From contig CALABO010000013.1 of NCBI GenBank assembly GCA_937885575.1, positions 46,438 through 110,437 of the forward strand: 64,000 bases of DNA. The letters run 5' to 3'. Source of the stretch: an uncultured Pseudomonadota bacterium. GTDB taxonomy: Bacteria > Pseudomonadota > Alphaproteobacteria > Rs-D84. Positions 5,919 through 51,897 of this stretch are shown piece after piece. Each line of letters opens with the position of its first letter. The stretch's first letter is position 1. Under the pieces are notes generated by a model. It made no database searches. It saw only the letters and a list, made by a program, of their open reading frames with translations, and was not told where the DNA came from. Made by a program: the position numbers and the translations under genes.

Positions 5919-6162
5919 TGGATTCGCAAACATCATCGATACATTACGCAGTGGTTGGTTCCTTATCGCGTTTATTGCGGGCATGATATATTGGGTGGCG
6001 CGCCAAGACAATGCTCTGGTGGAACTTGACCGATTGACGACGCGCATAACGACACTTGAAAACCGCACGACAATCCTGGAAACCGGAATAGGGCAATTGC
6101 AACTAAAAATCGACGGCATCAAAGAAGACCTGACCCTTATCAAAACAGCAGTGATAAAATAG
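5905..6162 (+). CDS. Small membrane / coiled-coil protein (85 aa)
   Basis: ATG 5905 overlaps the upstream ORF. One TM helix (WFLIAFIAGMIYWV) followed by a heptad-like region. The stop TAG 6160-6162 is formed at a repeat edge. Confidence 0.45.
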   Translation: MPKSNGFANIIDTLRSGWFLIAFIAGMIYWVARQDNALVELDRLTTRITTLENRTTILETGIGQLQLKIDGIKEDLTLIKTAVIK

Positions 6163-6286
6163 TGTTAGTGTAAGTGGGAAGTGGTTAGTATGCTCTGGAA
6201 TTTGTTCGTAATTACGGATTTATTCCAGAGCGCAAAGTTCTCCTCCTGCGGAGGAGTACGGCGTGGAACGCCGGGAGGTGGTCTTT
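6162..6286. repeat. Composite repeat unit: GTGGTTAGTG arm + TCTGGAAT/ATTCCAGA core + CCTCC-hairpin module
   Basis: 6181-6216 is a perfect inverted copy of 8549-8584. The module ttctcctcctgcggaggag..cggcgtggaacgccg..ggaggtggtctttt spans 6238-6286. Confidence 0.85.
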
Positions 6287-6668
6287 TCCCTCTGTCGCGT
6301 CAAAGACGCGACGAACAGAGGTTCGAAGTCGCGCCCATTTCATTTTTATCGTCATACCGCTGTAAAGCGGTATCTGGTGGTTTCAGCCGTGACGACGGGA
6401 TACCGCGTTTCGGCGGCATGACGGCATTTTTATTAGCCCCTTGCACCAACAATCATTTTATGATACAATTCATGTGCCGGCGGGTGTTCCGTTGGTGGGG
6501 TGTAACGACCCTTTTGAGTTGCGTCCAAATTCTGGATGAAAAGTACTCCAACCAATCGGTTGGAGGGCTGTGAATAATATCGGACCATGTCCGATAAAAT
6601 AAACACACAATTCCAACTCAAATTGTCGTTAACCTCCAACCACTTGAAGTAATTCGGTGGTTTTTTGA

Positions 6669-6719
6669 TTCCCCTTTCTGGGGAAAGGGGTGTCGCCGAA
6701 CGGCGACAGGGTATGGGTG
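6669..6719. repeat. Solo CCTCC-hairpin module (degenerate)
   Basis: Sequence ttcccctttctggggaaaggggtgtcgccgaacggcgacagggtatgggtg. It shows the same two-hairpin layout as the DUF559 cassette termini. Confidence 0.6.
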
Positions 6720-6735: not shown

Positions 6736-8319
6736 ATGAAAAAATTTTTAACCGTTTTATGTTTATGCTTTGTATCAATTGATGTGTCGGCCGCCACGTA
6801 TGCATGTATAATGCAAGAAAAAGAAACTCTTATGCATGGCAGGTTAAGCGCAGGTGGTACGGAATTTTTATATTGTGGACATGTTGAAGACAAAGGGTGT
6901 GATGAAGGTGATGTAGTAAAGGGAGACAGAGAAAATGTGGCTAATCTTTTATGGAAATGTCATAATCATCATTGGATAAAAGTAGGTGAATCAGAGATTA
7001 GAGATTGCTCGTTGACAGAGAATTTAACAAATGAAGCGGTTGATGCGGTAAGCGAGACATCTAAATATGTGTTATATGGTGAATCTGACATGAGAAAACT
7101 TCATGATGGAGAAGAAGTCAAGAGTTGGGCTATCAAAGGTGGAATTGCTGGTGTATGCAAGATTAATTTAGCAGAGGCAAGAAAAGAGTGTGAAAAATCT
7201 GGCGGGACGCTAGAAGGCAGATATTGTAACTGTTCAAAGGATGGATATGCGCAAGGTGCAAATTTGACGGCACCGTGTGAGTGTGCGGATGGTTTGAAAA
7301 GAGGGGCCGATAACAAATGTTGGCCGGCACAATATGTTGATGGAAAGTGCTTGGTATACTTAAACCATATATATGATTGCCCACTTCCCGACGTTGGTCA
7401 CGAAGTAAATGGAATATTGTTTACCTATCTTGATAAGTATCGGTGTTCTTTTGTTTATAAAGATAGTAATTATTATCGTCTTTGTAATGATAATGGTAAA
7501 ATTATTAAAAAAATTGGTGTGGCATGTCCTGGATTTGATGATGAGTTAGCGTGGAATGCTTATGGAGAAGGTCGTTATAATCAGGAGGAAGATAAAGATG
7601 GTTTTCCGTGTATTAAACCTAAACCAGAATCCAAATACAACTATAAATCTTGTTCGGCTGATTCTGATTGCACGGGAATTGATAACACGGTGCGACCGTA
7701 TTTGCATTCGACGGCGTGGCACTGTGCGTGGCAAAGTGCGGGTGTGCGTGTTTGCGCCGCAACCGCGTGTGAATCGGGATGGACGCCGATAAATGGATAT
7801 TGCCAGGAAGACAAAACCGCGCAAACACCACAATCCGAAAATAAAAATGCTAATTCGGTATCCAATATCAAAACCGAAACGAAAGCGGGCACAAAGAAAC
7901 CCTGTACTGATTTGGATAATATGGATTCGAATTGCAAATGCATTGTTGTGGGAACGGTGGAACGTGGTGGAAAGTGCGTGTGTCGTGACGATAACCAAGA
8001 AATCAAAAATGGCAAATGTGAATGGACGGCAAAATATATTGCGGGGTTGGAAAGCGACCTTGATAGCAAATTTAACAATCTGACCGCAACGATTGGCGGG
8101 TTCGAAAAAAATGTATGGCGCGATGAAAATGGCGAATTTAACACCGCGCGCCTTGCGTCGGACAGTATTGCCGGTATTGTGCTGGGGACCGTTGGCGGAA
8201 TTGTGACGGCGAACCTTGTCAAAAAAGCCCAGGTTAAACAGGGATTTGAAGATATCGGTTGCTATATCGGCGGTCAATCCGTCGCCGGTTTCGGTGATGA
8301 ATTTAATGTTGGACGGTAA
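6736..8319 (+). CDS. Cysteine-rich secreted / membrane-anchored protein (527 aa)
   Basis: Signal peptide MKKFLTVLCLCFVSIDVSA. Many Cys in short-spaced clusters (CECADGLKRGADNKC; CKCIVVGTVERGGKCVC). C-terminal hydrophobic helix IAGIVLGTVGGIVTANLV. Visibly AT-richer than neighbours. Confidence 0.7.
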   Translation: MKKFLTVLCLCFVSIDVSAATYACIMQEKETLMHGRLSAGGTEFLYCGHVEDKGCDEGDVVKGDRENVANLLWKCHNHHWIKVGESEIRDCSLTENLTNEAVDAVSETSKYVLYGESDMRKLHDGEEVKSWAIKGGIAGVCKINLAEARKECEKSGGTLEGRYCNCSKDGYAQGANLTAPCECADGLKRGADNKCWPAQYVDGKCLVYLNHIYDCPLPDVGHEVNGILFTYLDKYRCSFVYKDSNYYRLCNDNGKIIKKIGVACPGFDDELAWNAYGEGRYNQEEDKDGFPCIKPKPESKYNYKSCSADSDCTGIDNTVRPYLHSTAWHCAWQSAGVRVCAATACESGWTPINGYCQEDKTAQTPQSENKNANSVSNIKTETKAGTKKPCTDLDNMDSNCKCIVVGTVERGGKCVCRDDNQEIKNGKCEWTAKYIAGLESDLDSKFNNLTATIGGFEKNVWRDENGEFNTARLASDSIAGIVLGTVGGIVTANLVKKAQVKQGFEDIGCYIGGQSVAGFGDEFNVGR

Positions 8320-8350
8320 ATAGTGGTAGTGTAAGTGATAAGTGTTAGTG

Positions 8351-8373
8351 CGGGCGCGGTTGCGCCCGTTTTT
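8351..8373 (+). terminator. Intrinsic terminator after the Cys-rich gene
   Basis: Stem-loop cgggcgc-ggtt-gcgcccg followed by ttttt. Confidence 0.7.
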
Positions 8374-8397
8374 GCGCAAAAATTCCAGAGTACGAGG

Positions 8398-8527
8398 TTC
8401 TCCTCCTGTGGAGGAGTACCCGAAGGGGGAGGTGGTCTTTTATAAATATAAAATATCTGGAATATGAAAGACCACCCCGTCCGCTTTCGCTATCGCTGCA
8501 GCGAGACACCCCTCCACAGGAGGGGAA
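8398..8527. mobile_element. ORF-less inverted pair of CCTCC-hairpin modules (MITE-like shell of the DUF559 cassette)
   Basis: 8398-8441 (..ggaggtggtctttt) and 8467-8527 (aaagaccacc..) are inverted copies separated by 25 nt. The termini have the same architecture as at 37405/37850 and 53665/54190, but there is no ORF. Confidence 0.6.
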
Positions 8528-8602
8528 CTTAGCTTTCTGGAATAACCACGTAATTACGAACAAATTCCAGAGCATACTAACCACTAACACTTACACTACC
8601 CA

Positions 8603-8944
8603 CTAAAACGCATTTTTTGTCCAATCGATATGTCGGCCGTGGACAATTATAACATCGAACCGTGCATCGCCCGTCCATCGCCGTTGCAGTAAAAATGTTT
8701 CCGCCGCCAATCGCAGCCGCCTTTGTTGTGCGGGCGTAATTGCGCCCCAGGCGGTCATTACCTCTTTGCGTTTTTTTACTTCAACAAAAATAATAAGTTT
8801 CCCGCGTTTTGCGATTATATCAATTTCTGCGCGCCCAGTGTTTCGCCCGGTTGTATAACGCCGATGCAAAATCCTAAACCCGTGCAGAATTAAAAACACG
8901 CACGCAAAAAATTCTGAAAAAATTCCGGTCTTGTATGAATCCAT
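8603..8944 (-). CDS. yraN: YraN-family (UPF0102) endonuclease-like protein
   Basis: 113 aa. Contains ..GRAEIDIIAKRGKLIIFVEVKKRK.. PD-(D/E)xK-like pattern typical of YraN. The stop TAG is formed at a repeat edge. Confidence 0.75.
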   Translation of the reverse strand: MDSYKTGIFSEFFACVFLILHGFRILHRRYTTGRNTGRAEIDIIAKRGKLIIFVEVKKRKEVMTAWGAITPAQQRRLRLAAETFLLQRRWTGDARFDVIIVHGRHIDWTKNAF

Positions 8945-9746: not shown

Positions 9747-10403
9747 TTATTTCTCTTCGACCAAGACCCGTTGCACATTGAACACAAACACCAACGCCGG
9801 ATCAATACCATCTTTTAATGCACCGTGAACATCGCCTTCTCGGACATTGCCGATACTGTTTACCCAATCATCATCGCCCAAATCAAGATACATTGTCCCG
9901 CGCGTTATCTTTGGGCTTTCCGACATGTCATTTGGTTTATACCATGTTTTCAGTTCATAATCAACCCGCCAATAATTACTTGCCGCCGGGCGGTAGATTT
10001 CATTAAACACGATTACAGTCCGCCGGGCGCCGGCCGCGACCAAACCTTCTATTTCCGGCAATTCATTTTGCCGCCAATAATCAAACGCCGCCGCGCCCGA
10101 CATCTGCGCCAGTACTGAACGCCGCGTATCCCGCCTTGCAACATCTTCTTTGTCCGGCACAGCGTAAAAATATTCCGTCACATATTTTTGAACAAGCCAA
10201 TCGCGCAACTTGCGTTTTCCAACCTCGGCCCACGAATGCGGCATTCCAGGCAAATCGTTGGACTGAATACTGGTTCGCAAGAACCGCGGTTCCACGGCAA
10301 ACTTTTCGGAAGTGTCATAGATGGACGCGGCAACATAAATCGCGCCAAAGACCATAATCATGGTCGCAAGTCCGAATAAAAATCCCAAAAGTTTCTTCAT
10401 CAC
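9747..10403 (-). CDS. Membrane-anchored periplasmic protein, VirB8/DotI-like architecture
   Basis: 218 aa with an N-terminal TM helix followed by a roughly 170-aa domain. The C-terminal ..DPALVFVFNVQRV.. is reminiscent of the NPLGF.V motif. 4-nt overlap with the upstream gene. Confidence 0.4.
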   Translation of the reverse strand: MMKKLLGFLFGLATMIMVFGAIYVAASIYDTSEKFAVEPRFLRTSIQSNDLPGMPHSWAEVGKRKLRDWLVQKYVTEYFYAVPDKEDVARRDTRRSVLAQMSGAAAFDYWRQNELPEIEGLVAAGARRTVIVFNEIYRPAASNYWRVDYELKTWYKPNDMSESPKITRGTMYLDLGDDDWVNSIGNVREGDVHGALKDGIDPALVFVFNVQRVLVEEK

Positions 10404-11098
10404 TGTTCCCTGTACGCGTTAAATTCCGCCACATAAAACCCAAGTGTCTGGGGATACCGCTGTGCATCGCGCGCAATTTTGACATACGCAATCACATCAA
10501 AATCGCCGTTCAAATTCGACCGCACCGATGTCCGCACGACCCAGGTTCCGCCATCTTTGGTTGTTTCGCCATTGGGCATAACACTAATTTTTTTCGTATC
10601 AACATACCAACGTTGCCCCATAGATTCATACGACCGATACATCGGCAAAACCTTTTCGACAAAGGAACGAAACATATTGTCGCCCGCCATACAATAAAGG
10701 TCGCAACCGGCATCCGATTCAAAAGTGTTGCTTATGCGGTCGGCGCAATCGGCACCCCGATTACACGTCGCCCAATTTTTTGCATTCAATGTCGGGTTAT
10801 CGGAAATAGTGAACCATTTTTTCGTAAAAATCCCGGCCAATGCACGCTGGGCTGAATCATAATACGGCACAACGATATTCGGCCGAACCTGGCCCACCAA
10901 TTGCCAATTTCCGCGCATACCATCAACATAAATCACATACGGACTGGCGGTGCGGCTGTTCTGCAACCAAGGTATCGCGACACAGCATGCGATGGTTAAA
11001 AAGAACGCAACCATCACCCACACGCCAAACGTGCGGGAAATCGCAACCCGTTTCCCTGCGGGAAATGCGGGCGTATCAAAATCTTCTGGGTAATCCAA
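10400..11098 (-). CDS. VirB8-like protein
   Basis: 232 aa with a cytoplasmic N-terminus and a TM helix (VWVMVAFFLTIACCVAI). ..SPYVIYVDGMRGNW.. and the C-terminal ..PQTLGFYVAEFNAYRE resemble VirB8 signatures. Confidence 0.55.
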   Translation of the reverse strand: MDYPEDFDTPAFPAGKRVAISRTFGVWVMVAFFLTIACCVAIPWLQNSRTASPYVIYVDGMRGNWQLVGQVRPNIVVPYYDSAQRALAGIFTKKWFTISDNPTLNAKNWATCNRGADCADRISNTFESDAGCDLYCMAGDNMFRSFVEKVLPMYRSYESMGQRWYVDTKKISVMPNGETTKDGGTWVVRTSVRSNLNGDFDVIAYVKIARDAQRYPQTLGFYVAEFNAYREQ

Positions 11099-13604: not shown

Positions 13605-14656
13605 AGCCCAAACACCCGTGCGATATCATTCCACATAGTCAGCATGAACACAAACCCAAGGAAAATCCAACCGCACACGATTACGATTTCCATTCCCTTG
13701 CCACCCAACTTTTTGCGTGTCACCAATTCAATAAGCAATATCAGCAAATATCCGCCGTCCAACACCGGCAACGGAAGTAAGTTTATCACGCCCAAATTCA
13801 CGGACAGCAACGCGATAATAGATAACAACGCAAAGAATCCCGCCGCCAATGCCTGGCCAGATACCTGGGCAATTGTGATGAATGAACCCAATTGTTTCGA
13901 AGACCGATCGCCGGTTATGATTTGTTTTAACACAACAACCAATGTCCGCGATTGATAATATGTTTCGCGCGCACCGGCATACAATGCGCCAAAGAAACCC
14001 TTTTTGCGCAACTCTGTCCGACTTCCGTCCGCAACAAGTCCCCACCGCGACGCGGGGCTAAGTTTTACATTAACGATTTCGCCATCGCGCGCAATCACAA
14101 CATCTGCATCATGCGTGCCGGCAAGTTCCTTGGCAATAACCAATTCGCCCCAGTTTGTAATATCCGCATCATCAATCTTAACTATAACATCGCCCGGTTT
14201 AACGCCGGCATTAAATGCGACACTTTCCTGAATAACCTGGCCCACGACGGGCAATTGCACATCGCGCGGTTTGAACATAAATATCGCAGAATAAATTGCC
14301 CACGCCAAGACAAAGTTCATAAACACGCCCGCGCCGATTATAATAAATTGCTTCCACGCCGGCGCGGAAAGGTAATGCCCAACCTTTTTTTCTTTTGGCA
14401 ATTCGTTATATTTTTTTCGGTTGAACATATCTTCTTGACCATAAATGGAGACATATCCCCCAAGGGGCAGGCACGCAATCTTCCACACAGTTCCCTTTTT
14501 ATCATGCCACTTTATAATCGCGGGGCCAAACCCAATAGAAAACGCATCAACGCGCACGCCGGCCCACCGCGCCGCCAAAAAATGCCCCAGTTCGTGAATA
14601 AACACCACAACCCCAAGGACAATTAATAACGCAACAATCGTTGTTATCGTATGCAT
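13601..14656 (-). CDS. rseP: RIP zinc metalloprotease RseP
   Basis: HELGH motif, PDZ region, ..NLLPLPVLDGG... 4-nt overlap with bamA. Confidence 0.92.
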   Translation of the reverse strand: MHTITTIVALLIVLGVVVFIHELGHFLAARWAGVRVDAFSIGFGPAIIKWHDKKGTVWKIACLPLGGYVSIYGQEDMFNRKKYNELPKEKKVGHYLSAPAWKQFIIIGAGVFMNFVLAWAIYSAIFMFKPRDVQLPVVGQVIQESVAFNAGVKPGDVIVKIDDADITNWGELVIAKELAGTHDADVVIARDGEIVNVKLSPASRWGLVADGSRTELRKKGFFGALYAGARETYYQSRTLVVVLKQIITGDRSSKQLGSFITIAQVSGQALAAGFFALLSIIALLSVNLGVINLLPLPVLDGGYLLILLIELVTRKKLGGKGMEIVIVCGWIFLGFVFMLTMWNDIARVFGL

Positions 14657-22732: not shown

Positions 22733-22766
22733 TACCCCACTAACCACTAACACTTATCACTAACAC
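22733..22766. repeat. Right-arm fragment of the palindromic repeat family
   Basis: Sequence taccccactaaccactaacacttatcactaacac. Confidence 0.7.
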
Positions 22767-28833: not shown

Positions 28834-28973
28834 GTGGTTAGTGCTAGTGTAAGTGGTTAGTAGTGTCTGGAATAAATCTGTAATTGCGCAATAATTCCAG
28901 AAAGCAAAGTTCCCCTCTCGAGATGGGTGGCCGAAGGCCGGGGTGTGGTTCTCTAACCACTACCACTAACCAC
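28834..28973. repeat. Composite palindromic repeat, long form (arms + core + embedded CCTCC module 28910-28954)
   Basis: Left arm gtggttagtgctagtgtaagtggttagtagtgtctggaat, then ..attccagaa-agcaaag-ttcccctc..ggggtgtggtt, then right arm taaccactaccactaaccac. TA at 28974-28975. Confidence 0.85.
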
Positions 28974-29899
28974 TACATACTTTCCAATCGTCGAATCCTT
29001 TCCGCAATCGGTGGGTGGGTTGCCATAATTTCGCCAAAAAACGCGCGCGTCCGTGTTGGGTTCGCGATGCATATTGCCGCCATCGTTTTGCGCCCATCAA
29101 GGTTTTTAACAACCGAATGTTCCGAAATTTTACGCAGTGCCGTCGCGAGTGCCCGCGGATTTCGGGTTATGTACGCACCCGTCGCATCCGCCGCATATTC
29201 ACGCCGCCGCGAAATCGCCATATGCAAAATCGGCGAAATCACAACATTGAAAAGTGTGAACGCCAACCACACCATCATTATCACCGCCGCGCCATTGTTT
29301 TTATCATCGCCATCCGAACGCGCATACATCATATTCCGCGCCAGCATATCCGCAATAAAGACCGTCACGCCAATGCCGGTAATGATGAACATGCTAAGCC
29401 GTATGTCGCGATTGCCGATGTGTGCCATTTCGTGGGCGATTACACCCTCCAGTTCCGGTCGGTCCAATTTTTCGATAATTCCACGGGTGAGCGCCACCGT
29501 CGCATCACGCGGCCCGCGCCCCGTTGCGAACGCGTTAAGGCCACCGTCTTCGATAACATAAACCCGTGGTGTTGGCAACCCGGCGGCGATTGCGACATTT
29601 TCCACCGATTTATAAACATACCTGTATTCTGGGTCGGTGTCGCCTATCTGCTTTGCGCCCGCCATGGAAAGCATCATCGAATCCCCAAACGCCCATGATA
29701 TCAGCATCCAAACGGCGCACACAGCAATCGTCGGCACCGCCACCATAGTGGTTGTATTGATTGCATCATTTAACGGTTGCACACACCAAACACAGATGAA
29801 CACCAACGCAATAAAAATAACCGGAAACAGCACCACCAACACCGCGGTTTTTATGTTGTTTGCACGTATATGGTCATAAACAGTTTTGACTTTTTTCAT
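28973..29899 (-). CDS. htpX: Zinc metalloprotease HtpX (M48)
   Basis: 308 aa from ATG 29899. HEMAHIGNRD motif and TM helices. The stop TAG is formed at a repeat edge. The ORF-track 5' extension runs through a repeat. Confidence 0.88.
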   Translation of the reverse strand: MKKVKTVYDHIRANNIKTAVLVVLFPVIFIALVFICVWCVQPLNDAINTTTMVAVPTIAVCAVWMLISWAFGDSMMLSMAGAKQIGDTDPEYRYVYKSVENVAIAAGLPTPRVYVIEDGGLNAFATGRGPRDATVALTRGIIEKLDRPELEGVIAHEMAHIGNRDIRLSMFIITGIGVTVFIADMLARNMMYARSDGDDKNNGAAVIMMVWLAFTLFNVVISPILHMAISRRREYAADATGAYITRNPRALATALRKISEHSVVKNLDGRKTMAAICIANPTRTRAFFGEIMATHPPIAERIRRLESM

Positions 29900-36622: not shown

Positions 36623-38185
36623 ATGCTGCACACATCGGATTTTGATTTTGAATTGCCACCGGAACTTATCGCATCGCACCCGCTTGCGCGCCGTGACGCA
36701 TCACGTATGTTGGTGGTGGAACCCAGCGGGACCGGGGGAAAACTATCCATTTCTGACAAACATATTCGGGATTTTTTAGATTACCTGCGCCCCGGCGATG
36801 TTGTTGTGTTTAACAATTCGCGGGTAATTCCGGCGCGCTTTGATGCGGACGGTCACGAAATCACGCTGCATACCGCGGTTGACGATAAAAATTGGTGGGG
36901 CCTGTGTAAAAAGTTCAACAAAATAAACATTGGCGACACGCTGACCATGGCGGACGGCACAACAATAACCGTTATGGATAAAGACGACGAAAGTGGCCTT
37001 TTGCTGCGGTTTAATTGCGATAATGTGTTCGATGTCTTGAACCGCGTTGGCAAAATGCCGCTGCCACCGTATATGAAGCGCGATGCCGAAATCGCCGATC
37101 AAACGCGTTATCAAACGGTCTATGCCGACCCATTGGGGTCGATGGCGGCACCGACGGCGGGGTTGCACTTTACCGATGAATTGATGCATGAAATAGAGGC
37201 GCGCGGCGCAAAAATAGTAAAAATCACATTGCATGTTGGCGCGGGAACATGGATGCCGGTTAAAACTGAAAATCTTTCCGAACATAAAATGCACAGTGAA
37301 TGGTGCCAAATCACACCCGCCCAGGCCGACATTATAAACGCCGCAACGCGTGTAATCGCCGTCGGCACAACAACGCTCCGCACATTGGAATCCGCCGCGT
37401 CAAGTTCCCCTCCTTTGGAGGGGTGGCGGGTAGCACCCGCCGGGGTGGTTAGAGACACCGCAAACTATCGCACATTACCATTTAATCCAAACCTGAAACA
37501 ACGCGCCCGCGAATTGCGCCACGCAGGCAGCCTGCCCGAAGCATTATTGTGGCGTGAAATATCCGGCAAAAAAATAAACGGATTAAATTTTAATCGCCAA
37601 ACGGTAATTGGGAATTATATTGTTGATTTCTTTTGTCCCAAAACAGGGCTGGTTATTGAAATAGATGACAAAGCGTCGCATGATATCAAGGGCGCATACG
37701 ATGAAAAACGCGAAAAATTTTTGACTTCATTGGGGCTGACGACTTTGCATATTCCCGCCGCAGATGTGTTAAAAGATGTGTCGTCTGTTGCAAGCATGAT
37801 TGCGCGACACCCCGTCGCCGTTCGGCGCCACCCCTCTGGCCAGAGGGGAACTTGCTTCGGTTTCCAAACGAACACAACCATAAAGACATCGCGGCCCAAT
37901 TCCCCTCTGGCCAGAGGGGTGGCGGGTGGAACCCGCCGGAGTGTCGCCCCGCGTGTTGCACCGTTTTGTGGTACGACGGATATTTTTATCACACCGGGAT
38001 ATAAATTCCGTGCGGTTGACGTGTTGCTTACGAATTTTCATTTGCCCAAAAGTACACTCTTCATGTTGGTGTCGGCGTTTAGTGGACTTGAGCAGATGAA
38101 AGCCGCATACGCCCACGCCGTCGCCGAAAAATACCGTTTTTTCAGTTATGGCGATTGCTGTTTATTGTTTAGAAAGGATTCATAA
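36623..38185 (+). CDS. queA: S-adenosylmethionine:tRNA ribosyltransferase-isomerase QueA carrying an in-frame insertion of roughly 180 aa
   Basis: Single 520-aa ORF. It has canonical QueA blocks (..PLPPYM.., ..YQTVYA.., ..GLHFT.., ..VGTTTLRTLESAA and ..TDIFITPGYKFRAVDVLLTNFHLPKSTL..) with foreign sequence between the last two. Confidence 0.9.
   Translation: MLHTSDFDFELPPELIASHPLARRDASRMLVVEPSGTGGKLSISDKHIRDFLDYLRPGDVVVFNNSRVIPARFDADGHEITLHTAVDDKNWWGLCKKFNKINIGDTLTMADGTTITVMDKDDESGLLLRFNCDNVFDVLNRVGKMPLPPYMKRDAEIADQTRYQTVYADPLGSMAAPTAGLHFTDELMHEIEARGAKIVKITLHVGAGTWMPVKTENLSEHKMHSEWCQITPAQADIINAATRVIAVGTTTLRTLESAASSSPPLEGWRVAPAGVVRDTANYRTLPFNPNLKQRARELRHAGSLPEALLWREISGKKINGLNFNRQTVIGNYIVDFFCPKTGLVIEIDDKASHDIKGAYDEKREKFLTSLGLTTLHIPAADVLKDVSSVASMIARHPVAVRRHPSGQRGTCFGFQTNTTIKTSRPNSPLARGVAGGTRRSVAPRVAPFCGTTDIFITPGYKFRAVDVLLTNFHLPKSTLFMLVSAFSGLEQMKAAYAHAVAEKYRFFSYGDCCLLFRKDS
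37405..37943 (+). mobile_element. DUF559-nuclease cassette inserted in frame in queA (TIR 37405-37450, DUF559 domain, inverted TIR 37808-37850, solo module 37900-37943)
   Basis: Left end ttcccctcctttggaggggtggcgggtagcacccgccggggtggtt. Internal ..LPEALLWREI..GLNFNRQTVIGNYIVDFFCPKTGLVIEIDDKASHD.. is homologous to the 53727-54071 protein. Right end gccacccctctggccagaggggaa. Confidence 0.8.
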
Positions 38186-42832: not shown

Positions 42833-42909
42833 GCGAGCGTAGCTCAGTTGGCTAGAGCGCAACCTTGCCAAGGTTGAGGTCGAGGGTTCGAGCCCCTTTG
42901 CTCGCACCA
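42833..42909 (+). tRNA. tRNA-Gly (anticodon GCC)
   Basis: 77-nt cloverleaf with anticodon loop tTGCCaa, T-loop TTCGAGC and encoded CCA. A TTGCAA promoter-like hexamer lies at 42792. Confidence 0.9.
42893..42909 (+). repeat. attL core (tRNA-Gly 3' end)
   Basis: Identical 17-mer recurs at 51873-51889. Confidence 0.85.
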
Positions 42910-43042
42910 AAGTTTTTTATTAGAAATCCGGGCGTTTGCACCGGATTTTTTGTTTTTTATGCAAAATTACTGGTGCGGATAATGTTTTGAATTTTCAACA
43001 TTTTTTGCTTTGACACACTTGAAAAATAAAGGAAAATTAACT

Positions 43043-44578
43043 ATGTTCAGGAAGTGTAAAGCAAATTGTCAAGCAAATGACAACCTTTATATTAGAGGCA
43101 ATGTGTTTTATTATATGGTTGAATTACCGCGTCAAGATGGTAAACGCCGATATTTTATAAAATCGTTGCATACGAAAAATTATTATGAAGCGTTGGAAAA
43201 GACAAAAAACATGAAAAAAGCGGTGGAATTGCATACCATGGATACGAAAAGATTGTTAAAACGTGCCAAAGAATTGATGGGTAGAGTCGTTTTTGATACC
43301 ATTGACGTTAACGTGGATAATGGAAATGGACAGATTATCACCACGCAGCAAAGGCGTATTTCTGCAAAAACAGATGTTAAAGTGGTTGAGGAATTATGGG
43401 ATGTTATTTCAAAATTATATCAACCACATACCAACAGAACGCTTGATGACGATGATTTAAAACTGATTGCCGAAATTGTAAATATGCGTGTTGATGCAGA
43501 AAATGAAAAATTGATGGAAATGCTGCAATCTAAATTGAACGGCGTATTAAATAACACTCCGCCATCGGCAAATGAAACGATTGTGGACATTTTAACCAAA
43601 TGGAAAAATAGTATATCAACCAAAAATTGCGAAACGGAAGCGAAACGCAAAGAAAGCGTAATAATTAAAATGGTTGATTGGGTTGGTCTGAAATTGACCG
43701 ATAAATACTTGGATTTTTACAACCTTGATAACATCCAGAAAATTTGTAAATGTATCAAAGAAAATGACGACGTTAAGGGGAACACAAAGCGAAAATATGC
43801 TAGATACTTGCGTGAATTTATTAAATATGCGCCAAGGGTAAATTCAGCATATCAAACAGATTTGGCGGAAGAAATAAGTGATTTTGATAAAACTTCTGCT
43901 ATTGATACCAAAGGCCATATGCAATATACGCGTGAACATTTAATGCAGATATTTGACCCAAAGCAAACGTTTTTTAATGAAAATGAAGACCAGTTCTGGT
44001 TTGTGATAATCGCTTTATTTACTGGCGCACGTCGTAATGCGGCAACAACACTGCAATATGGCGATGTTATAAATAAGGATGGTATCGATTGTATCCAGTT
44101 TAGGCGGAATCATCCAATTAAAATGTTAAAAAACGATGAATCAGAGCGTTTGGTTCCAATGGCACAACAATTATTAAATTTGGGATTTGTTGATTACATA
44201 AATCGCCGTAAAGCCAAGTTAAATGCCGAAGATACGGATTTTATATTCCCAAATTGTCAGCGTAAGGACGGTAAATATAACACTAATGTTGTTCAAAAGG
44301 GGTTCTTGCAATATATCAAAGATTTAGGAATAAAACAACCTGATGGCGACCAGTATGATTTTCATTCATTGCGGAATAATGCAACGGAAATATTGGAAAA
44401 TGCAGGTGTTTCACAGATATTTATCAACAAGATAATTGGTTGGAAAGGTCAAAACACTATGCAACAACATTATTCCAAACGCAGATTGGACGAAATTAAA
44501 ATAGAAGTCGATAAATTGCGGTATGATTTTTTACAACCAGAATTTGACGTCTGGGCGGAAATAATGGCGAAAAAATAA
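43043..44578 (+). CDS. int: Tyrosine recombinase / phage-type integrase
   Basis: 511 aa from ATG 43043 (AAGGA RBS). Catalytic pattern ..TGARRNA.., ..FHSLRNN.. and ..GWKGQNTMQQHYSK... Confidence 0.85.
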   Translation: MFRKCKANCQANDNLYIRGNVFYYMVELPRQDGKRRYFIKSLHTKNYYEALEKTKNMKKAVELHTMDTKRLLKRAKELMGRVVFDTIDVNVDNGNGQIITTQQRRISAKTDVKVVEELWDVISKLYQPHTNRTLDDDDLKLIAEIVNMRVDAENEKLMEMLQSKLNGVLNNTPPSANETIVDILTKWKNSISTKNCETEAKRKESVIIKMVDWVGLKLTDKYLDFYNLDNIQKICKCIKENDDVKGNTKRKYARYLREFIKYAPRVNSAYQTDLAEEISDFDKTSAIDTKGHMQYTREHLMQIFDPKQTFFNENEDQFWFVIIALFTGARRNAATTLQYGDVINKDGIDCIQFRRNHPIKMLKNDESERLVPMAQQLLNLGFVDYINRRKAKLNAEDTDFIFPNCQRKDGKYNTNVVQKGFLQYIKDLGIKQPDGDQYDFHSLRNNATEILENAGVSQIFINKIIGWKGQNTMQQHYSKRRLDEIKIEVDKLRYDFLQPEFDVWAEIMAKK

Positions 44579-44698
44579 TATGCGCTGGATGGTCGTCTGT
44601 ATTTAATTTGCAAATACATATTTACCATCCAGGCGTATCGACCCAATGCAATTTAGAGAAAACGCGCTTAGGGGCAAATAGTGATTTATTTACTCCTG

Positions 44699-46498
44699 TT
44701 ATTCAGTAGGTGTATGTAACCCTGGGACTTTTGAATTCATTTCCTTTATTTCCGCCAGTTGTTTTTCTTCAAATTTTTGTAATTCCTTTTGGGTTTTGAA
44801 CCCAAGAATTTCCATATATTTTGTTTGGATGGTTTGATAAAATATTGTGGCTTTTTCTTCAAGCCGTTGAACAAGCATTCGTAAAAATCTATTGCAGCAG
44901 ACGCATTGGCAAAATTCGTAAGTAATATATTCATCAAAAATATGGTTTGCAGCTTCATAAAAATTATCCGGCATATTTGTGCATTTGGTTGTATCTTCTG
45001 CTTGTTTCAAACGTCGGAATAAATCCAATGCTAATATACCGCCACGGTCTTTGGTCCAAGATGTTTGTAAAATCACTTGTTCGCTTAATAGCGTATCGTC
45101 ATCATCTTCTTCCCAATAATCTGCTTCCGTTGGTTCGGGGCATTCTATCTGTGGCAGTTCAGCTGGATTCGATATTGCGGTGAAATATGGCAACAAGCAA
45201 TCATATAATTCGACTTTGGAAATTTTGCTGATTTTTTCATATTTGGTGTTCAGAACATCAAATTTTTCACGTATCTTTAAATACTGTTCACCATACACTA
45301 TATACCACTTCGTGCTGCAATTTCCATAATCTGTTTTTCTATAAATTAAACCTTGTTCTGCCAGATATTCCAACGCATCTGGTACTGCATCTCGACGTTC
45401 TGGATTTATTAATTGTGTATGGCGAGAGTTTTTAATATGTTCATAAATATAACTTGGTGTTAACAATACGGTTTGATTCATTGTCGTCGGATTAGCAGGA
45501 CACGTAAGTTCCATATTTTGATGTATGTATGCTAAAATATCCGCCATTGCGGTCATACTGACGGCATTTTCATTATTTATTGATACGACCTTATATAAAT
45601 CGTGGTAATGTTCAAAATTTGGCAAAGAATCCATAATATTTGTTATAATTTTTGTTAGTGTGCCTTCGCCTAATGGGCGACAGTTTAATCTTTTGCCAAA
45701 TTTAATGGTGGCAATACGTCGTTGCCTTAAATAAACCATATCGTTTGATGCAAAAATGACGTTGGTATTCACGTGGAATAAATATTGTCGTTTATTCTTT
45801 GGGTTGAGTTCGGTGTCACCACCATTTATTAAATTCAACACATTTTCACGTTGAATATCAGCAGATTTTGCTTCATCAAAATAAACAACATGGGTTTTAT
45901 ATATTCTCTCTTCGTGTGGCGATAATAAAAGTTTAACAGAATTCGCTTTAAATACTGGACCATATTGTTCTTCTACTTTCATAATAGCCTTGGCGGTTGC
46001 AGATTTGCCATTATGTGCAACACCGTTGAAAAACACACATAATTTATCGTCTTGTTCAAGTTCGCCATCGCGTAAATACTTCACTTGCATTAAAAAACAC
46101 ACCAACCCAAGATAACTTTTTTCATCAACCAGATTCAACCGATACAGATTATCCACCAATTTATTGATGTCAGGACATGTGTTTTCTTTCGCTTTTACAA
46201 TATTTTGATTGTATTTTTCGTGTTGAATTTCTTCTTTTTTGCGTTCGATTTTATCGGCAATACGGTCAATCGTTTTTGGTTGCCTTTCAATCAACGTTGC
46301 AATTCGTGGGGTGATATTATAATTCCGTTCTTCGCCAGTAATATCATCCGTGGTTTTATACCTAATCGGGTTTTCTTTGAACGCTTCCATTGTGATGTCG
46401 TATGCGTTCGCCTGATTAAATTCAATGTTTCTGTATGCACAATAAATAGCAATTATGCTTTCGTGTTCGTGCGTTAGCGATATTTTACTCTTCGCCAT
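44699..46498 (-). CDS. P-loop NTPase, SF3 helicase-like (primase-helicase of satellite/plasmid type)
   Basis: 599 aa. Walker A GVAHNGKS, Walker B VVYFDEA, then ..NVIFASND... Confidence 0.55.
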   Translation of the reverse strand: MAKSKISLTHEHESIIAIYCAYRNIEFNQANAYDITMEAFKENPIRYKTTDDITGEERNYNITPRIATLIERQPKTIDRIADKIERKKEEIQHEKYNQNIVKAKENTCPDINKLVDNLYRLNLVDEKSYLGLVCFLMQVKYLRDGELEQDDKLCVFFNGVAHNGKSATAKAIMKVEEQYGPVFKANSVKLLLSPHEERIYKTHVVYFDEAKSADIQRENVLNLINGGDTELNPKNKRQYLFHVNTNVIFASNDMVYLRQRRIATIKFGKRLNCRPLGEGTLTKIITNIMDSLPNFEHYHDLYKVVSINNENAVSMTAMADILAYIHQNMELTCPANPTTMNQTVLLTPSYIYEHIKNSRHTQLINPERRDAVPDALEYLAEQGLIYRKTDYGNCSTKWYIVYGEQYLKIREKFDVLNTKYEKISKISKVELYDCLLPYFTAISNPAELPQIECPEPTEADYWEEDDDDTLLSEQVILQTSWTKDRGGILALDLFRRLKQAEDTTKCTNMPDNFYEAANHIFDEYITYEFCQCVCCNRFLRMLVQRLEEKATIFYQTIQTKYMEILGFKTQKELQKFEEKQLAEIKEMNSKVPGLHTPTE

Positions 46499-47009
46499 CG
46501 TATTACTCCTTTTAAATTATTAACAAATCGCGCACAGAATTTCCCCGTGCATATATATAGAATGTGTAAAAATTTGATGACCCCGAAAAAAATTTTTCTT
46601 TTTTATGATTTGGACGGTTCGACCTGCGTTTTTTTTAAAATCTCATTTTGATGTTTTTAATTTATTTTTTGCATAAATTGTCGAACAAAAAAATCTTGTT
46701 TTGTTCGTAAATTCAATTAGTTATATGATTTCTTCACTAGACTTTTTAATATATTTTTCTTTTCGCACACGTGATATAAGTGCAAAAAGTATCACAAAAT
46801 AACCCCTAAAAGTGCCAATCCAAAAAATTTGATTTTGGTTCAGTGTCGATTAAAAAGTGGTTCAATAAATTATAAGGTTCGGTTGGTATTACAGGCTGCA
46901 AATCGCTGTGATTATTAACCACCTATCTGAAAAAAACACTAAAAACGCTGAAAACCATAATATAAACACCAAAAGTAAGCGTTTGTAATGTTATATACCA
47001 AATTTAACC

Positions 47010-47549
47010 ATGGGGATTGAAAAAATGACTACGATTTGTAATACCATTTGCTGTAATACCAATACGACCATCCAAACAAAAAGTATATTACAATCGTGGT
47101 TCAGTAATATCAATCCCCAATATTTTTTGTCGGTTCAGTTTCCAAAGTATCTTCGTTCGATGGACTTGATAAAATCCAATCAAAAATTACGCAAAATAAT
47201 GTTCAACTTGGAAAAATTGCTGCTTGGTCGGCATTGGAATCGCAAACATATCCCATTTGTTGCTGTTGCTGAACACGGTAAATCTGTTCATTGGCATTAT
47301 CACATCTATGTTTATGATTGTCCTTTTACTCCCTTTGAAATGCAACAAAAGGTTCACAATCTTTTGGAAAAATTGGGATTACCACAGGAAACGTTGGATA
47401 TTAAACCCATATTAACATCGGGGGTATATTCGTATACATCCAAAGAATTTATTACCGATGTTAATTACCACTTTGATTCAAACCGCATAATTACATCTGA
47501 AATTCTGTTTGACCTTCAACGTAAATTACCGACGCATATCAAAGGATGA
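47010..47549 (+). CDS. HUH-type rolling-circle replication initiator (small Rep)
   Basis: 179 aa. Motifs appear in the canonical order: FLSVQF (I), HWHYHIYVY (II, HUH), YSYTSKE (III, catalytic Tyr). Confidence 0.55.
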   Translation: MGIEKMTTICNTICCNTNTTIQTKSILQSWFSNINPQYFLSVQFPKYLRSMDLIKSNQKLRKIMFNLEKLLLGRHWNRKHIPFVAVAEHGKSVHWHYHIYVYDCPFTPFEMQQKVHNLLEKLGLPQETLDIKPILTSGVYSYTSKEFITDVNYHFDSNRIITSEILFDLQRKLPTHIKG

Positions 47550-47650
47550 CAGAGACATACCACAGGACAACGGAAATAATTTTTTTGATAACTTATACAC
47601 CGGTCAAAATTGGAGCAATTTAGGAACAATTATTTAAAAAGTAATTAAAA

Positions 47651-47682
47651 ACCACCAATTTTTATCTTGGTGGTCTTTTTTT
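47651..47682. terminator. Bidirectional intrinsic terminator
   Basis: accaccaa-tttttatc-ttggtggt flanked by A-run and T-run. Confidence 0.7.
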
Positions 47683-47821
47683 ATGCATTCACGATATTAA
47701 CGCACATCGCAATGTTATTATCTTTTAACTTTTGACGTGCGATACATGCTTGGTCGTATCGAAAATATATTTCCGGCAACACGATTCCATTTGCAACCAA
47801 TTTAAAACAAGTGCAATTCAT
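47681..47821 (-). CDS. Possible small ORF (46 aa), below the ORF-track cutoff
   Basis: The ATG lies 2 nt after the stop of 47824-48102. Translation is MNCTCFKLVANGIVLPEIYFRYDQACIARQKLKDNNIAMCVNIVNA. The stop sits inside the terminator. Confidence 0.3.
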   Translation of the reverse strand: MNCTCFKLVANGIVLPEIYFRYDQACIARQKLKDNNIAMCVNIVNA

Positions 47822-47823
47822 AA

Positions 47824-48102
47824 TTATGCCACCTTTGATTCCATAACGAATTTGTTAAACTGGGCCAATCCGCAGCGCACAGCTCTGGACTTACACCTAC
47901 CTCTTACACTGTGCTCGCCAGTATTACAATATTTTGGATATATTTCGGATATCGAATCTGCTAACTGTTCGATTGTTTTATTTTCCCATTCACAGACATA
48001 ACGAACACCGGTCAAATAATCGAACACGGTGGATGGTTGGTTATTATCTGTGAACAATTTATAACCGTTGTTAATTAACCAATTTTTAAAGTTTTTTGTC
48101 AT
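47824..48102 (-). CDS. Hypothetical protein (92 aa)
   Basis: ORF with no recognised motif. The opposite-strand ORF 47732-48001 is judged a shadow. Confidence 0.45.
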   Translation of the reverse strand: MTKNFKNWLINNGYKLFTDNNQPSTVFDYLTGVRYVCEWENKTIEQLADSISEIYPKYCNTGEHSVRGRCKSRAVRCGLAQFNKFVMESKVA

Positions 48103-48265
48103 GATTTATACCTCTTTGTTTATCATTACAGATATAATCCTACCGTGTAAAAATTGCTTTGCACACAAAAAAATGGCTAAAATCTGCCACTTTTAATAAT
48201 TTACTATTTAATTTGAATAGGTTATCAGGAATAAACTATTTGATTTAAATAGTTTATAATGCTTT

Positions 48266-48553
48266 CTACGCCAACATGATACAAAAGCATATAAACAATA
48301 CACCAAGACATATAAAATATTGCGTAAATTTCTTAAAATTTGTCGGTATTTTGAAAAACATCGTCCAAAATGTAAATAACATGTCCATTAACCACATAAA
48401 TAGATACACCGACTTTTTGATGTTCGGTTTGATGATTCTTAACATAATGATTGTGGAGTTAACCACACATGCTAATAATCCGGCTAAAACAAGTGCTTTT
48501 GCAGCATGAATAGACCAAATTATCCACAATAAAACAGATAAAATCGTTATCAT
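48266..48553 (-). CDS. Small integral membrane protein (95 aa, about 3 TM)
   Basis: Three hydrophobic helices. Starts 4 nt after the HNH gene stop. Confidence 0.55.
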   Translation of the reverse strand: MITILSVLLWIIWSIHAAKALVLAGLLACVVNSTIIMLRIIKPNIKKSVYLFMWLMDMLFTFWTMFFKIPTNFKKFTQYFICLGVLFICFCIMLA

Positions 48554-48557
48554 TATT

Positions 48558-49658
48558 TTACCCCTTCAATAAAATATACCCCATCAATATTGGTATTACT
48601 ATGTATAAAAAGATACGGAAATACGATAATAATTTTGCTTTTAATAATTCACGTTGCATATATACTTGGATTCGTTTTTGTTCAACGTATTTATTGTATT
48701 TTATTATGCCATTATTATAAACCTTCACACATTTGTCGCATTGAGAAATCAAAATATTTCCAGAAGAATTTGAATTATGTATAACGGTTAAGGTTTCTAA
48801 TACTGTTTTGTATTCTTGTAATTCGGTTAATCTATCTTGCAAATAAGTCAACCCCACTTCATCAATATCGATTTTTGATGTCATTTCATATATATCACTT
48901 AAAACAGTTTGAATACGTTTACCTATCTGTGTCCGTATATTTGCAATCAATGCCGTTATGTGTTCGCATAAATCATTTGTTGAAATTTTTAATGTAGCCA
49001 ATATATCGTTTAATAATGCTAAATCATCCAATATTATACTATCCAATGTATTGTATAATTTCAAACCGGTTTCCGTATAAACATCCAAAGAATCTATTTT
49101 GCCCCTTGGCATATTATAATTAAACATTTGCTTTTGTTGCTCTTGTGATAACAATTCTTTTAATGCACCATGTTTATCGTATTGTGGATTTTCTTTTAAA
49201 AATTCTATGATATTCTTTTCTAAGGTATTTATAAAATAAACTTTTTCAGAAGGTTTTATTAAATTTTTATTACAAAACAGTGTGTGTTCTATGCTGTTAT
49301 AAAATCGACTTTCTTCGTATTTTCCGGTCATTTTTAAAAATGCATACTCGGCATACCCCATTGAATTCAAGATTTCATGGCATTTTATGTGTTCATAACG
49401 GGTTAAAAGAACCAAATTATATTTATAATCATACCCGCCACAACATTTTGGCACAATATGGTGTATTTCATATCGATTTTCTATATATTCCCCATTTTGT
49501 AAAGAATACCTTGGTGGTCTTTTTAACCCACGTTGTTTTGCTTTGTTTACAATCGCAGCATATTCGTCATTGGCCATGAATTTATTGTATAACGCAATAA
49601 ATTGGTCATGTTTCTTTGCCTTACATGCTCTTAAATAACCATAATTACAATATCTCAT
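48558..49658 (-). CDS. HNH endonuclease with helical extension and C-terminal membrane anchor
   Basis: Contains ..EIHHIVPKCCGGYDYKYNLVLLTRYEHIKCH.. and a terminal TM FRIFLYIVIPILMGYILL. Confidence 0.7.
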   Translation of the reverse strand: MRYCNYGYLRACKAKKHDQFIALYNKFMANDEYAAIVNKAKQRGLKRPPRYSLQNGEYIENRYEIHHIVPKCCGGYDYKYNLVLLTRYEHIKCHEILNSMGYAEYAFLKMTGKYEESRFYNSIEHTLFCNKNLIKPSEKVYFINTLEKNIIEFLKENPQYDKHGALKELLSQEQQKQMFNYNMPRGKIDSLDVYTETGLKLYNTLDSIILDDLALLNDILATLKISTNDLCEHITALIANIRTQIGKRIQTVLSDIYEMTSKIDIDEVGLTYLQDRLTELQEYKTVLETLTVIHNSNSSGNILISQCDKCVKVYNNGIIKYNKYVEQKRIQVYMQRELLKAKLLSYFRIFLYIVIPILMGYILLKG

Positions 49659-49794
49659 ATCATCCCTTTATACTGTATATATAATACATAATGACATTTT
49701 GTCAATACAATAAGATAATTTTATTACCAAATCTTTTTGTTTGATATAAAAAATGCCCCTGGGGGCATTTAATATCATTCTGTTTTGTATACAT

Positions 49795-50466
49795 TTATTT
49801 ACCGTTCAAAAGTTTTATTGTTTTCGGATGTTTTTTACCGCAATTTTCCATTTCTTTGTTCATTTTATCTTTTGCCTGTTTCATTTCGTCTAATGTTGCA
49901 TCTGTTCCATAAAGCACAGCACCTTTCGCACTATCGGCCACACAATTGCACCATTCCATACCGTCTATTTTTAACTGTTGTTTTTCTTTTGTTGTTTGTT
50001 TGCTTTTTTTCAAGGCTTCTTCAACATTTGAATAACATTCAAATTGTGTGTTTTCAATCTCGTTCATTGTCCTTGAATAAACTTCTTCTGATGAATTTGC
50101 CCAGTATTCGTAATCAAAATCTAAAATCGGCACTGTTTTGGTGTCATTACCTTTTGTTTCGTATTCTATTGTATCTTTATATATGAAACACTTGCCTTCT
50201 GGTGGAGTCACAATTTTTTCATCCCACAACTTCAAGTCCCATTTTTTAGGTATCACAACTGTCATACCATAACAATTATCTGTATTTCCGCCTTTACATA
50301 CACTTGCTAATGCCCCATTAGAAAAAGTCTGAAAAACTTTTACTTTTTTAAAATCAGCACACATAGTGTTTGCCATTGGTTTCTTAATTTGGGTTGTTTG
50401 TTGTGGTTCAGAATCTACAACACAAGCCGATAAAAACAATGCAAATAATATAAAAGTTTTTTTCAT
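49795..50466 (-). CDS. Lipoprotein (223 aa)
   Basis: Signal peptide plus lipobox LFLSAC. Confidence 0.6.
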   Translation of the reverse strand: MKKTFILFALFLSACVVDSEPQQTTQIKKPMANTMCADFKKVKVFQTFSNGALASVCKGGNTDNCYGMTVVIPKKWDLKLWDEKIVTPPEGKCFIYKDTIEYETKGNDTKTVPILDFDYEYWANSSEEVYSRTMNEIENTQFECYSNVEEALKKSKQTTKEKQQLKIDGMEWCNCVADSAKGAVLYGTDATLDEMKQAKDKMNKEMENCGKKHPKTIKLLNGK

Positions 50467-50485
50467 AAAAATCTCCTTTAACTGT

Positions 50486-50896: not shown

Positions 50897-50971
50897 ATCG
50901 TTCTCTCCTTGATATTAGGTATTATATCATACAATTCACAACAGTTCAAAATATCGGGTAATTTTTTAATA

Positions 50972-51889: not shown

Positions 51890-51897
51890 GAATTTTT

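Follow-up and report, generated by a model that had tools for sequence, protein, structure and literature searches.

The stretch of DNA analysed here (the window) covers 64,000 nucleotides of a contig from an uncultured alphaproteobacterium and contains, at 8397–8528, a pair of short repeat modules in inverted orientation with no gene between them. The pair sits between two convergent genes, an ORF (open reading frame) of 527 aa at 6736–8319 on the plus strand, whose product is cysteine-rich and has no Pfam match, and a YraN/UPF0102-like gene at 8603–8944 on the minus strand. A first-pass annotation had taken the two arms for inverted copies of a module that also flanks the two DUF559 nuclease genes of the window, and the sequence at 8398–8527 matches its description. 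The left arm (8397–8437, plus strand) consists of a pyrimidine arm (8400–8406, CTCCTCC), a loop (8407–8409), a purine arm (8410–8416, GGAGGAG), a linker with a 3-bp hairpin (8417–8428, CCC-GAA-GGG) and a G-rich tail, referred to below as the third strand (8429–8435, GAGGTGG). The right arm (8470–8528, minus strand) has the same parts in reverse complement: the pyrimidine arm at 8519–8525, the loop at 8516–8518, the purine arm at 8509–8515, an unusually long linker with its hairpin at 8479–8508 and the third strand at 8472–8478 (GGGGTGG). It is of the canonical type, 'A' (CCCCTCC/GGAGGGG/GGGGTGG), and the left arm is of a variant, 'B' (CTCCTCC/GGAGGAG/GAGGTGG), also present at 6237, so that the two arms belong to different subtypes. 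Between the tails lie 32 nt (8438–8469) with a TCTGGAAT motif at 8456–8463 and inverted bases (CTTTTAT/ATGAAAG) that extend the arms inward; the separation had been given as 25 nt, which holds if the bases CTTT(T)/AAAG are counted with the arms, the boundaries set by the model described below giving 32 nt. No nuclease reading frame is present in this spacer, and the small ORFs (41 and 81 aa) that overlap the pair are translated repeat DNA; a similar ORF begins in the copy at 6181. Folded as single-stranded DNA, positions 8392–8532 give -35.9 kcal/mol (z = -7.2 against shuffles). Rfam searches of the window at the gathering threshold, and of the pair and two cassettes at an E-value threshold, returned tRNAs and sub-threshold chance matches and nothing else.

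A covariance model of the module, R1, was built from 114 distinct modules that flank DUF559 genes in other genomes and contains no window sequence. These modules were cut by a loose regular expression from 80 loci, namely those of relatives of the window DUF559 in species-representative genomes, and the whole window was searched with R1 with filters off. Ten full-length matches (E-values 3e-15 to 0.02) were obtained, exactly the ten copies listed in the first-pass annotation, and the remaining matches with E < 1 are partial and come from the opposite strand of those ten copies, on which the first hairpin, being a palindrome, matches again; nhmmer, used in place of the covariance model, needed a 10-bit threshold to come near this list. 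Both arms of the pair are among the ten (left arm, 27.6 bits, E 3e-6; right arm, 44.7 bits, E 1.3e-11), and their identification as inverted copies of the module bracketing both DUF559 genes is thus confirmed by a model to which the window contributed nothing.

The modules measure 41–60 nt. In each, a pyrimidine arm (CCCCTCC) and a purine arm (GGAGGGG) are separated by a 3-nt loop and followed by a short linker, which a variable hairpin closes, and then by a strand of G, T and A (GGGGTGG). They had been described as two hairpins, and covariation upholds both (91.7% of the cells are paired, and double-change cells number 180 vs 55 in shuffles); what that description lacked is the 3' tail, which mirrors the substitutions of the first hairpin in the way expected of a third strand in a triplex. 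Four consistent stem/tail variants were found in many taxa: the stem CCCCTCC/GGAGGGG goes with the tail GGGGTGG, CCCCTTC/GAAGGGG with GGGGTAG, CCCCTCT/AGAGGGG with GGGGTGT and CCCCTTT/AAAGGGG with GGGGTAT. With the tail laid antiparallel to the purine arm, 775 of 798 cells (97.1%) are allowed triplets (C.G*G, T.A*T or T.A*A), and shifting the third strand by one, two or three bases lowers conformity to 46–57%. Since the regular expression that collected the modules admitted all combinations of these letters, the triplet pattern was not imposed by the sampling. An independent, model-aligned set from viral contigs has 356 allowed triplets out of 368, and the ten window copies have 67 out of 70, in five three-way-consistent variants; each arm of the pair has 7/7. 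In the 'B' type of the left arm a further, third position is changed in all three strands, and where the two hairpin arms disagree, the tail goes with the purine arm. The two ends of one cassette can be of different types (L029, L067), and non-canonical ends stand beside nucleases whose nearest relatives have canonical ends, so that the variants must have arisen repeatedly, in several nuclease lineages.

In this arrangement the purine arm ends at the base of the stem, the third strand starts there, and the variable second hairpin closes the connector. From these patterns of substitution we infer that the module probably forms an intrastrand triplex of class II (purine motif) with a side hairpin. 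As in that class, the order from 5' to 3' is pyrimidine arm, purine arm and antiparallel third strand, and only C.G*G, T.A*A and T.A*T triplets are used and kept through substitutions. The first loop has 3 nt, but the second connector departs from the short loops of the class, being 12–30+ nt long with its own hairpin.

The module brackets DUF559 genes in more than 10 phyla. Alphaproteobacteria are represented by 'Candidatus Enterousia' and other metagenome-assembled genomes (MAGs) from gut and rumen, which are likely relatives of the window genome, and the remaining loci belong to Beta- and Gammaproteobacteria, Desulfobacterota, Bacteroidota, Cyanobacteria, Spirochaetota, Saccharibacteria, Cloacimonadota, Chloroflexota and others. 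Almost all loci have ATTCCCCTCC-N3-GGAGGGGTG-hairpin-GGGGTGGT upstream of DUF559 and the inverse downstream. By regular expression, an inward-facing module lies within 260 nt of the gene at 72 of the 80 loci, and module density is 4.0/kb within that distance vs 0.087/kb in the remaining flanks (about 46-fold). By profile search, an inward module was found upstream of 78 of 85 DUF559 genes, downstream of 65 and on both sides of 62, so that the tie between DUF559 and a repeat family, first proposed from the window, extends across these phyla. Upstream and downstream ends differ systematically in the linker, which gives the cassette a left end and a right end. In many family proteins in the databases, translated modules form terminal extensions such as SPSLEGVARSDGVV and TTPSLRATPSKEGE. 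A test for co-evolution of nuclease and ends was significant but is confounded by joint inheritance.

Both window DUF559 frames match Pfam PF04480 (85.8 and 98.1 bits vs a cut-off of 20.6), the domain being placed at aa 291–394 of the ORF at 36623–38185 and in the ORF at 53727–54071 (minus strand). The acidic and histidine residues of the active site (D53, E64, D66 and H70, numbered as in the alaS-linked copy) do not vary in the nuclease alignment, which includes both window copies, and PDB 3hrl matches with an E-value of 8e-23. NCBIfam PRK09767 was matched below its equivalog cut-off, and PADLOC gave weak partial matches to the nuclease domains of DpdF and of a methyl-directed restriction enzyme and called no defence system. 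An exact look-up of the window DUF559 protein returned no database record, and one search for related proteins returned 4,534 clusters. Literature searches by family name, sequence strings and concept found no paper tying DUF559 to flanking repeats; in the literature searched, both the hairpin-closed connector and a dedicated DUF559 gene between the ends are unreported and new.

One of the two window cassettes lies in frame in queA (host ORF 36623–38185, cassette 37404–37946, plus strand) and has the order module (37404–37450, plus strand, R1 56 bits, the upstream end), DUF559 (coding part about 37475–37777), inverted module (37805–37851, minus strand, the downstream end), a 47-nt piece and a third module (37899–37946, plus strand). 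The window queA is an ORF of 520 aa with an in-frame insert of about 180 aa after TLESAA, and its product contains the Queuosine_synth and DUF559 domains and nothing else. An intein or intron was ruled out as the vehicle of the insert, there being no Hint domain and no Rfam intron family. Among queA homologues of the same lineage, some have the cassette at the window site, some at a second site after MLVVEPGG (about residue 43), some at both and some at none; empty alleles share 92–97% identity with the window, and module-only alleles exist at both sites. The window queA cassette lineage, including its 3' extension, occupies site 2 in the window and site 1 in P0127. This presence and absence at fixed queA sites 1 and 2 among close relatives is the pattern of homing-type elements. 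Among the 120 best-scoring database clusters, about 100 are queA-DUF559 fusions.

The other cassette (53664–54192, minus strand) lies just after the stop codon of alaS (54191–56266) and looks decayed. It comprises a module at its upstream end (54101–54142 by R1, extended to 54192, minus strand, with an insertion of about 45 nt in the first loop), the DUF559 ORF at 53727–54071 (minus strand) and a module at its downstream end (53664–53726, plus strand). The nuclease is frameshifted near codon 100 relative to close relatives, the usual C-terminus being encoded in another frame (ORF 53672–53764). Beyond the cassette, at 53617–53663 (minus strand), is a displaced second copy of the last 15 or so alaS codons with the stop, a direct repeat of 54192–54238; seven positions distinguish the two copies, whose translation is SSGIRRITMSVGALA* in either case. 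The seven differences, the frameshifted nuclease and the module insertion mark the cassette as old. In the Enterousia-like lineage, free-standing cassettes begin immediately after the stop codon of their host gene, and beyond them the final 27–58 nt of that gene are repeated; this arrangement is seen at alaS (in the window and in L001, L002 and L023) and at another three or four genes; 27–58-nt host 3'-end duplications also flank cassettes in L003, L005, L007, L019, L023 and L024. Behind alaS in L001, to which the window is most closely related (about 90% identity over syntenic DNA), two cassette-plus-repeat units stand in tandem (9875–10994). The alanyl-tRNA synthetase itself has 691 aa (window 54191–56266; L001:7847–9922) and ends just past the motif of the tRNA_SAD editing domain, and no C-terminal C-Ala domain is encoded downstream of alaS in the window or in L001.

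Elsewhere, 32 of the 85 DUF559 genes lie in a frame free of stops for more than 100 codons on both sides. Typical among these hosts are hsdR, with the insertion immediately ahead of helicase motif I, and type II methylase-restriction genes. Modules also form arrays. In most loci (L056:2849–2973, L057:9–199, L065:3351–3561, L064:3328–3453, L052, L020 and L081) successive modules start 39, 42, 48, 51 or 54 nt apart, in each case a multiple of three; an array in L006 has 53-nt spacing. In an hsdS gene of Pseudomonadales (L025:971–2977) in-frame module pairs bracket both target-recognition domains and are followed by a DUF559 gene, and in another MAG a methylase-restriction gene of 943 aa (L014:711–3542) contains, in frame throughout, modules as well as gene-less pairs and a DUF559 cassette.

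Pairs without a gene recur. Among the DUF559-selected loci, ten tail-to-tail pairs have a spacer of less than 60 nt, and four more were found in a set of 28 viral contigs that had been chosen by module pattern and not by gene. One pair, in L001, has the same two arm types as the window pair and flanks unrelated to those at 8.4 kb. Its A arm (2608–2665) is 96.6% identical to the right arm of the window pair, the odd long linker included, and its B arm is of the type at 6237 and 8397; the A+B pair thus exists as a unit at non-orthologous places, which is consistent with copies moving as ends-only units. The inner ends of the L001 pair keep GGTGGTTAGAGA...CTCTAACCACC, bases that in queA-type cassettes code for the residues at either end of the nuclease segment, and in L055, L071, L076 and L080 the DNA between the arms of gene-less pairs matches the leader found in occupied cassettes. 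These features fit either an internal deletion or an empty site for the gene.

In the window the pair is also embedded in a second repeat family, with GTGGTTAGTG/GTAAGTG-rich inverted arms around a core of (T/C)CTGGAAT-N6-CGTAATTRCG-N5-ATTCCAGA (about N20 between the motifs), which can also be written as GTTAGTG arms plus TCTGGAAT...ATTCCAGA. Copies lie at 1983–2075, 6150–6232, 8325–8390, 8536–8600, 28836–28975 and 60120–60240, with a half copy at 22738–22765, and in L001 at 10985–11030 and 14358–14450; TCTGGAAT occurs 14 times in the 64 kb, counting both strands, against a rough expectation of about 2 for an 8-mer. To the left of the pair, the copy at 8325–8390 (plus strand) has a GTTAGTG-rich arm (8325–8350), a terminator-like hairpin (8348–8377) and ATTCCAGAG at 8382–8390. 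To the right, the copy at 8536–8600 (minus strand) has a TCTGGAAT-N20-ATTCCAGAG core (8536–8572) and a CACTAAC-rich arm (8576–8600). The right flank is the inverted counterpart of the left, and 8325–8600 is therefore one composite palindrome of about 275 nt made of two units. Both arms of the pair and the copies at 6237 and 28909 come after ATTCCAGA(A/G) via a conserved 7-nt junction.

Four copies in the window had been listed as solo modules. All four are real, but the one at 37899 travels with the queA cassette, and two others are fused to the second family and are not independent solos: the 'B'-type module at 6237–6283 (plus strand, R1 21.8 bits, 7/7 triplets), joined to the GTTAGTG/TCTGGAAT unit at 6150–6232, and the CT-type module at 28909–28948 (plus strand), found by R1 between the core and the right arm of the GTTAGTG/TCTGGAAT element at 28836–28975. 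This element adjoins tRNA-Arg, and the module in it has an orthologous copy at L001:14430–14469. The fourth, at 6668–6716 (plus strand, R1 36.3 bits, 6/7 triplets), is of the TT type (CCCCTTT/AAAGGGG/(A)GGGTAT) and lies just upstream of the ORF at 6736–8319. A further hairpin-rich repeat of about 85 nt (tatcgtcataccgc...gcggtatc) is found at 6330–6430 of the window and at L001:3860–3943 and 2555–2590, with about 80% identity.

Taken together, we consider 8397–8528 to be a gene-less, ends-only form of a widespread cassette in which a Vsr-like DUF559 gene stands between a module and an inverted module, a reading to which we give a probability of about one-half. The ends of such a cassette would fold on single-stranded or supercoiled DNA, and the DUF559 nuclease would recognise the folded or palindromic end and nick or cut there. 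Repair of the break, or recombination between copies, would then spread or delete the intervening DNA. Stalling of the polymerase at the triplex might add template switches, which would account for the tandem cassettes and the 27–58-nt host 3'-end duplications. The insertions that survive would be those that spare the host gene, either in frame or behind a stop codon with the gene end duplicated. Having no nuclease of its own, the pair at 8397–8528 would need one in trans, for which the intact queA-borne copy is the candidate in the window.

Several observations weigh against this reading. No target-site duplication was found at the pair, whose outer bases (gtacgag / cttagct) are not direct repeats, and none at the in-frame cassettes; the long duplications elsewhere vary from 27 to 58 nt. 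The triplex is assigned by covariation alone, its stem of seven triplets is short, and the Fisher p-values of the triplet test overstate independence, the sequences being related within the element family. Among the viral-contig stretches, which were picked by module, 27 of 28 have modules and no DUF559 gene in that stretch, so modules may spread without DUF559. That the inserts are tolerated is deduced solely from in-frame conservation, and an AlphaFold2 model of QueA-DUF559 (17-row alignment) has a mean predicted local distance difference test score (pLDDT) of 37, too low for use. The window pair itself could possibly have arisen by inverted duplication of the composite unit described above. 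To our knowledge, no DUF559 protein has a known activity on such DNA, and joining DNA is beyond a PD-(D/E)xK nuclease acting alone.

A possible alternative, to which we give clearly less weight, is that the pairs are the primary repeat, spread by other means, and that DUF559 is a homing-type endonuclease gene whose product cuts unoccupied pairs, the gene then being copied into their spacer when the cut is repaired from an occupied copy, in which case 8397–8528 would be a site that was never invaded or has been cured. DUF559 always stands exactly between tail-to-tail modules, target duplications are missing from in-frame cassettes, queA alleles with modules alone are known for both insertion sites, and gene-less pairs and single modules outnumber occupied ones in module-based sampling. 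Vsr-like nucleases are moreover an established family of homing endonucleases (PMC2677866 and PMC3239194). The leader match in the spacers of L055, L071, L076 and L080 is compatible with insertion of the gene just behind the leader but is equally expected from internal deletion, and the inner-end bases GGTGGTTAGAGA...TCTCTAACCACC, which code for the terminal residues of the nuclease in queA-type cassettes and are kept in the L001 pair, look more like a remnant. This alternative also leaves unexplained how the pairs themselves arrive in new genes. The excess of modules over DUF559 genes when sampling by module is expected for non-autonomous copies, and also if the repeats spread by themselves. 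The earlier proposal of a MITE-like (miniature inverted-repeat transposable element) derivative consisting of the ends only is supported in its layout and by the recurrence of gene-less pairs, and the term 'derivative' expresses one of two readings, the other being the empty site.

Rather doubtful is a purely structure-driven repeat, multiplying through host replication and recombination errors that the modules themselves provoke, a route already proposed for boxC/TM_ECO, with DUF559 as a passenger and the window pair as an inverted composite duplication. It would draw on the junction to the second family shared by both arms and two of the 'solos', on the single long palindrome at 8325–8600, on the long duplications and tandem arrays at cassettes, which suggest template switching, and on the frequency of modules in stretches without DUF559; the triplex repeats of Escherichia coli known as TM_ECO likewise lie at rearrangement-prone loci for which no mobility gene was found (PMC4666352). 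Under such a scheme one would not expect near-identical ends to bracket DUF559 in fixed orientation in more than 10 phyla, nor upstream and downstream ends to be of systematically different types, and the homologous A+B pair in L001 occurs without the second repeat family. REP-type (repetitive extragenic palindromic) repeats can act as terminators, mRNA-end stabilisers or protein-binding sites. A host-serving signal of this sort, such as a bidirectional terminator, between the genes at 6736–8319 (plus strand) and 8603–8944 (minus strand) would suit the location between convergent gene ends and the strong fold (z = -7.2), but is very improbable, since a T-run terminator-like hairpin exists separately at 8348–8377, a terminator scan does not score the pair, no Rfam family matches it, the module also occurs in frame inside coding regions, and the PIT elements of E. 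coli showed no promoter or terminator activity (PMC4666352).

Among known systems, the module and its inverted pairs have a close parallel in those repeats of E. coli and its relatives, known since the 1990s and named boxC, PIT (Hoyne and Maher 2000) and TM_ECO (Holder et al. 2015), which form a class II triplex and fold in vitro (PMC4666352). Shared features are the strand order with a reverse-Hoogsteen G-rich strand, the allowed triplets, multiple copies and local rearrangement. In strain K-12 there are 23 TM_ECO copies at 18 loci; five loci are inverted pairs, each of an A-type and a B-type copy, and four of the five are tail-to-tail with spacers of 16–27 nt (PMC4666352). The window pair is similarly heterotypic and tail-to-tail, with a canonical and a variant arm and a spacer of 32 nt. 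It differs in having seven triplets instead of nine and in its sequence, and it departs from the TM_ECO consensus (CCCTCNCCC-N3-6-GGGNGAGGG-N3-GGGNGAGGG) in both sequence and stem length. With the hairpin-closed linker of 12–30+ nt in place of the second loop, such modules would escape published triplex finders (loops of 1–6 nt in ITxF and of 0–10 nt in Hoyne et al.). Moreover, the DUF559 module occurs in frame inside genes as well as between them and brackets a nuclease, whereas the boxC literature names no associated gene. K-12 has a single DUF559 gene, ycjD, with TM_ECO no. 9 (1,351,239–1,351,204) 165 nt downstream of it (about 4200–4480 of L083, NC_000913.3:1347000–1354000). The 3' end of ycjD runs into a truncated inverted TM and is itself duplicated over 40 nt. 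R1 does not match the TM_ECO copy at the ycjD locus, which makes the two separate families of one kind of element. Across 5,426 complete E. coli genomes, the marginal counts are 3,378 with ycjD and 4,605 with the type-A TM 36-mer.

The analogy with the REP/RAYT system, drawn in the first-pass annotation, holds for the layout only. REPINs are likewise short folded repeats in inverted doublets, with the single-copy gene that is thought to move them between inverted repeats and gene-less doublets far commoner, but the partner here is a Vsr-like PD-(D/E)xK nuclease and not a Y1 (HUH) transposase, the GTAG/CGTC tag is missing, and the DUF559 elements have a triplex-plus-hairpin fold, cross phyla and occur in frame within genes. 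No Y1 (HUH) transposase was detected by Pfam among the ORFs at 5.9–9.7 kb or in the tRNA-Gly island of the window. This island is a low-GC (29–40%) region of about 8.9 kb (42833–51900) beside tRNA-Gly, which encodes a tyrosine integrase (43010–44578), a DUF5906 protein, a Rep-like protein and a PLD-family nuclease and is not present at the syntenic place in L001. Like a MITE, the window pair has terminal inverted repeats of the same kind as those of the gene-carrying element, no coding capacity and copies at non-orthologous sites; unlike one, it has no fixed target-site duplication, and its partner gene is not a known transposase. The Vsr-like (EDxHD) homing endonucleases, such as I-Bth0305I, and the 'fractured gene' loci (PMC3239194 and PMC2677866) share with DUF559 the nuclease superfamily, selfish spread into conserved genes and presence or absence at fixed sites, as in queA. 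DUF559 differs in having no intron or intein, in being an unspliced segment of the host protein or free-standing, in its folded-repeat brackets and in its many hosts. The Rickettsia palindromic elements have no sequence relation to the window module, and we know of no associated gene or triplex signature described for them.

We would tentatively go further, while holding it unlikely to be correct in full, and suggest that DUF559/YcjD nucleases are the missing protein partners of intrastrand-triplex repeats of the boxC/PIT/TM kind. They would represent a hitherto unrecognised class of selfish element made of a structure-specific nuclease and inverted triplex-forming ends, crossing phyla, leaving many ends-only copies and surviving in frame in essential and restriction-modification genes; the window pair would be a non-autonomous copy, and ycjD beside TM_ECO the enterobacterial counterpart.

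If so, several separate puzzles would come together. A survey of programmed inversions listed 'DUF559 domain-containing protein' among its enriched predicted targets with no explanation (PMC9881135); inverted ends around DUF559 would, indirectly, account for this enrichment, and the in-frame modules in L025 and L014 may explain it as well. The in-frame cassettes in queA, hsdR, hsdS and methylase genes also bear on genome annotation; many 'fusion proteins' and odd terminal extensions such as PLEG/RGV peptides are translated repeat DNA. DUF559 is a very large family with a solved structure, and a fixed DNA partner would give it a testable substrate. Finally, the origin and spread of the E. coli triplex repeats were left 'unanswered' (PMC4666352), and triplex repeats that bracket a nuclease would be the first candidate for an answer.

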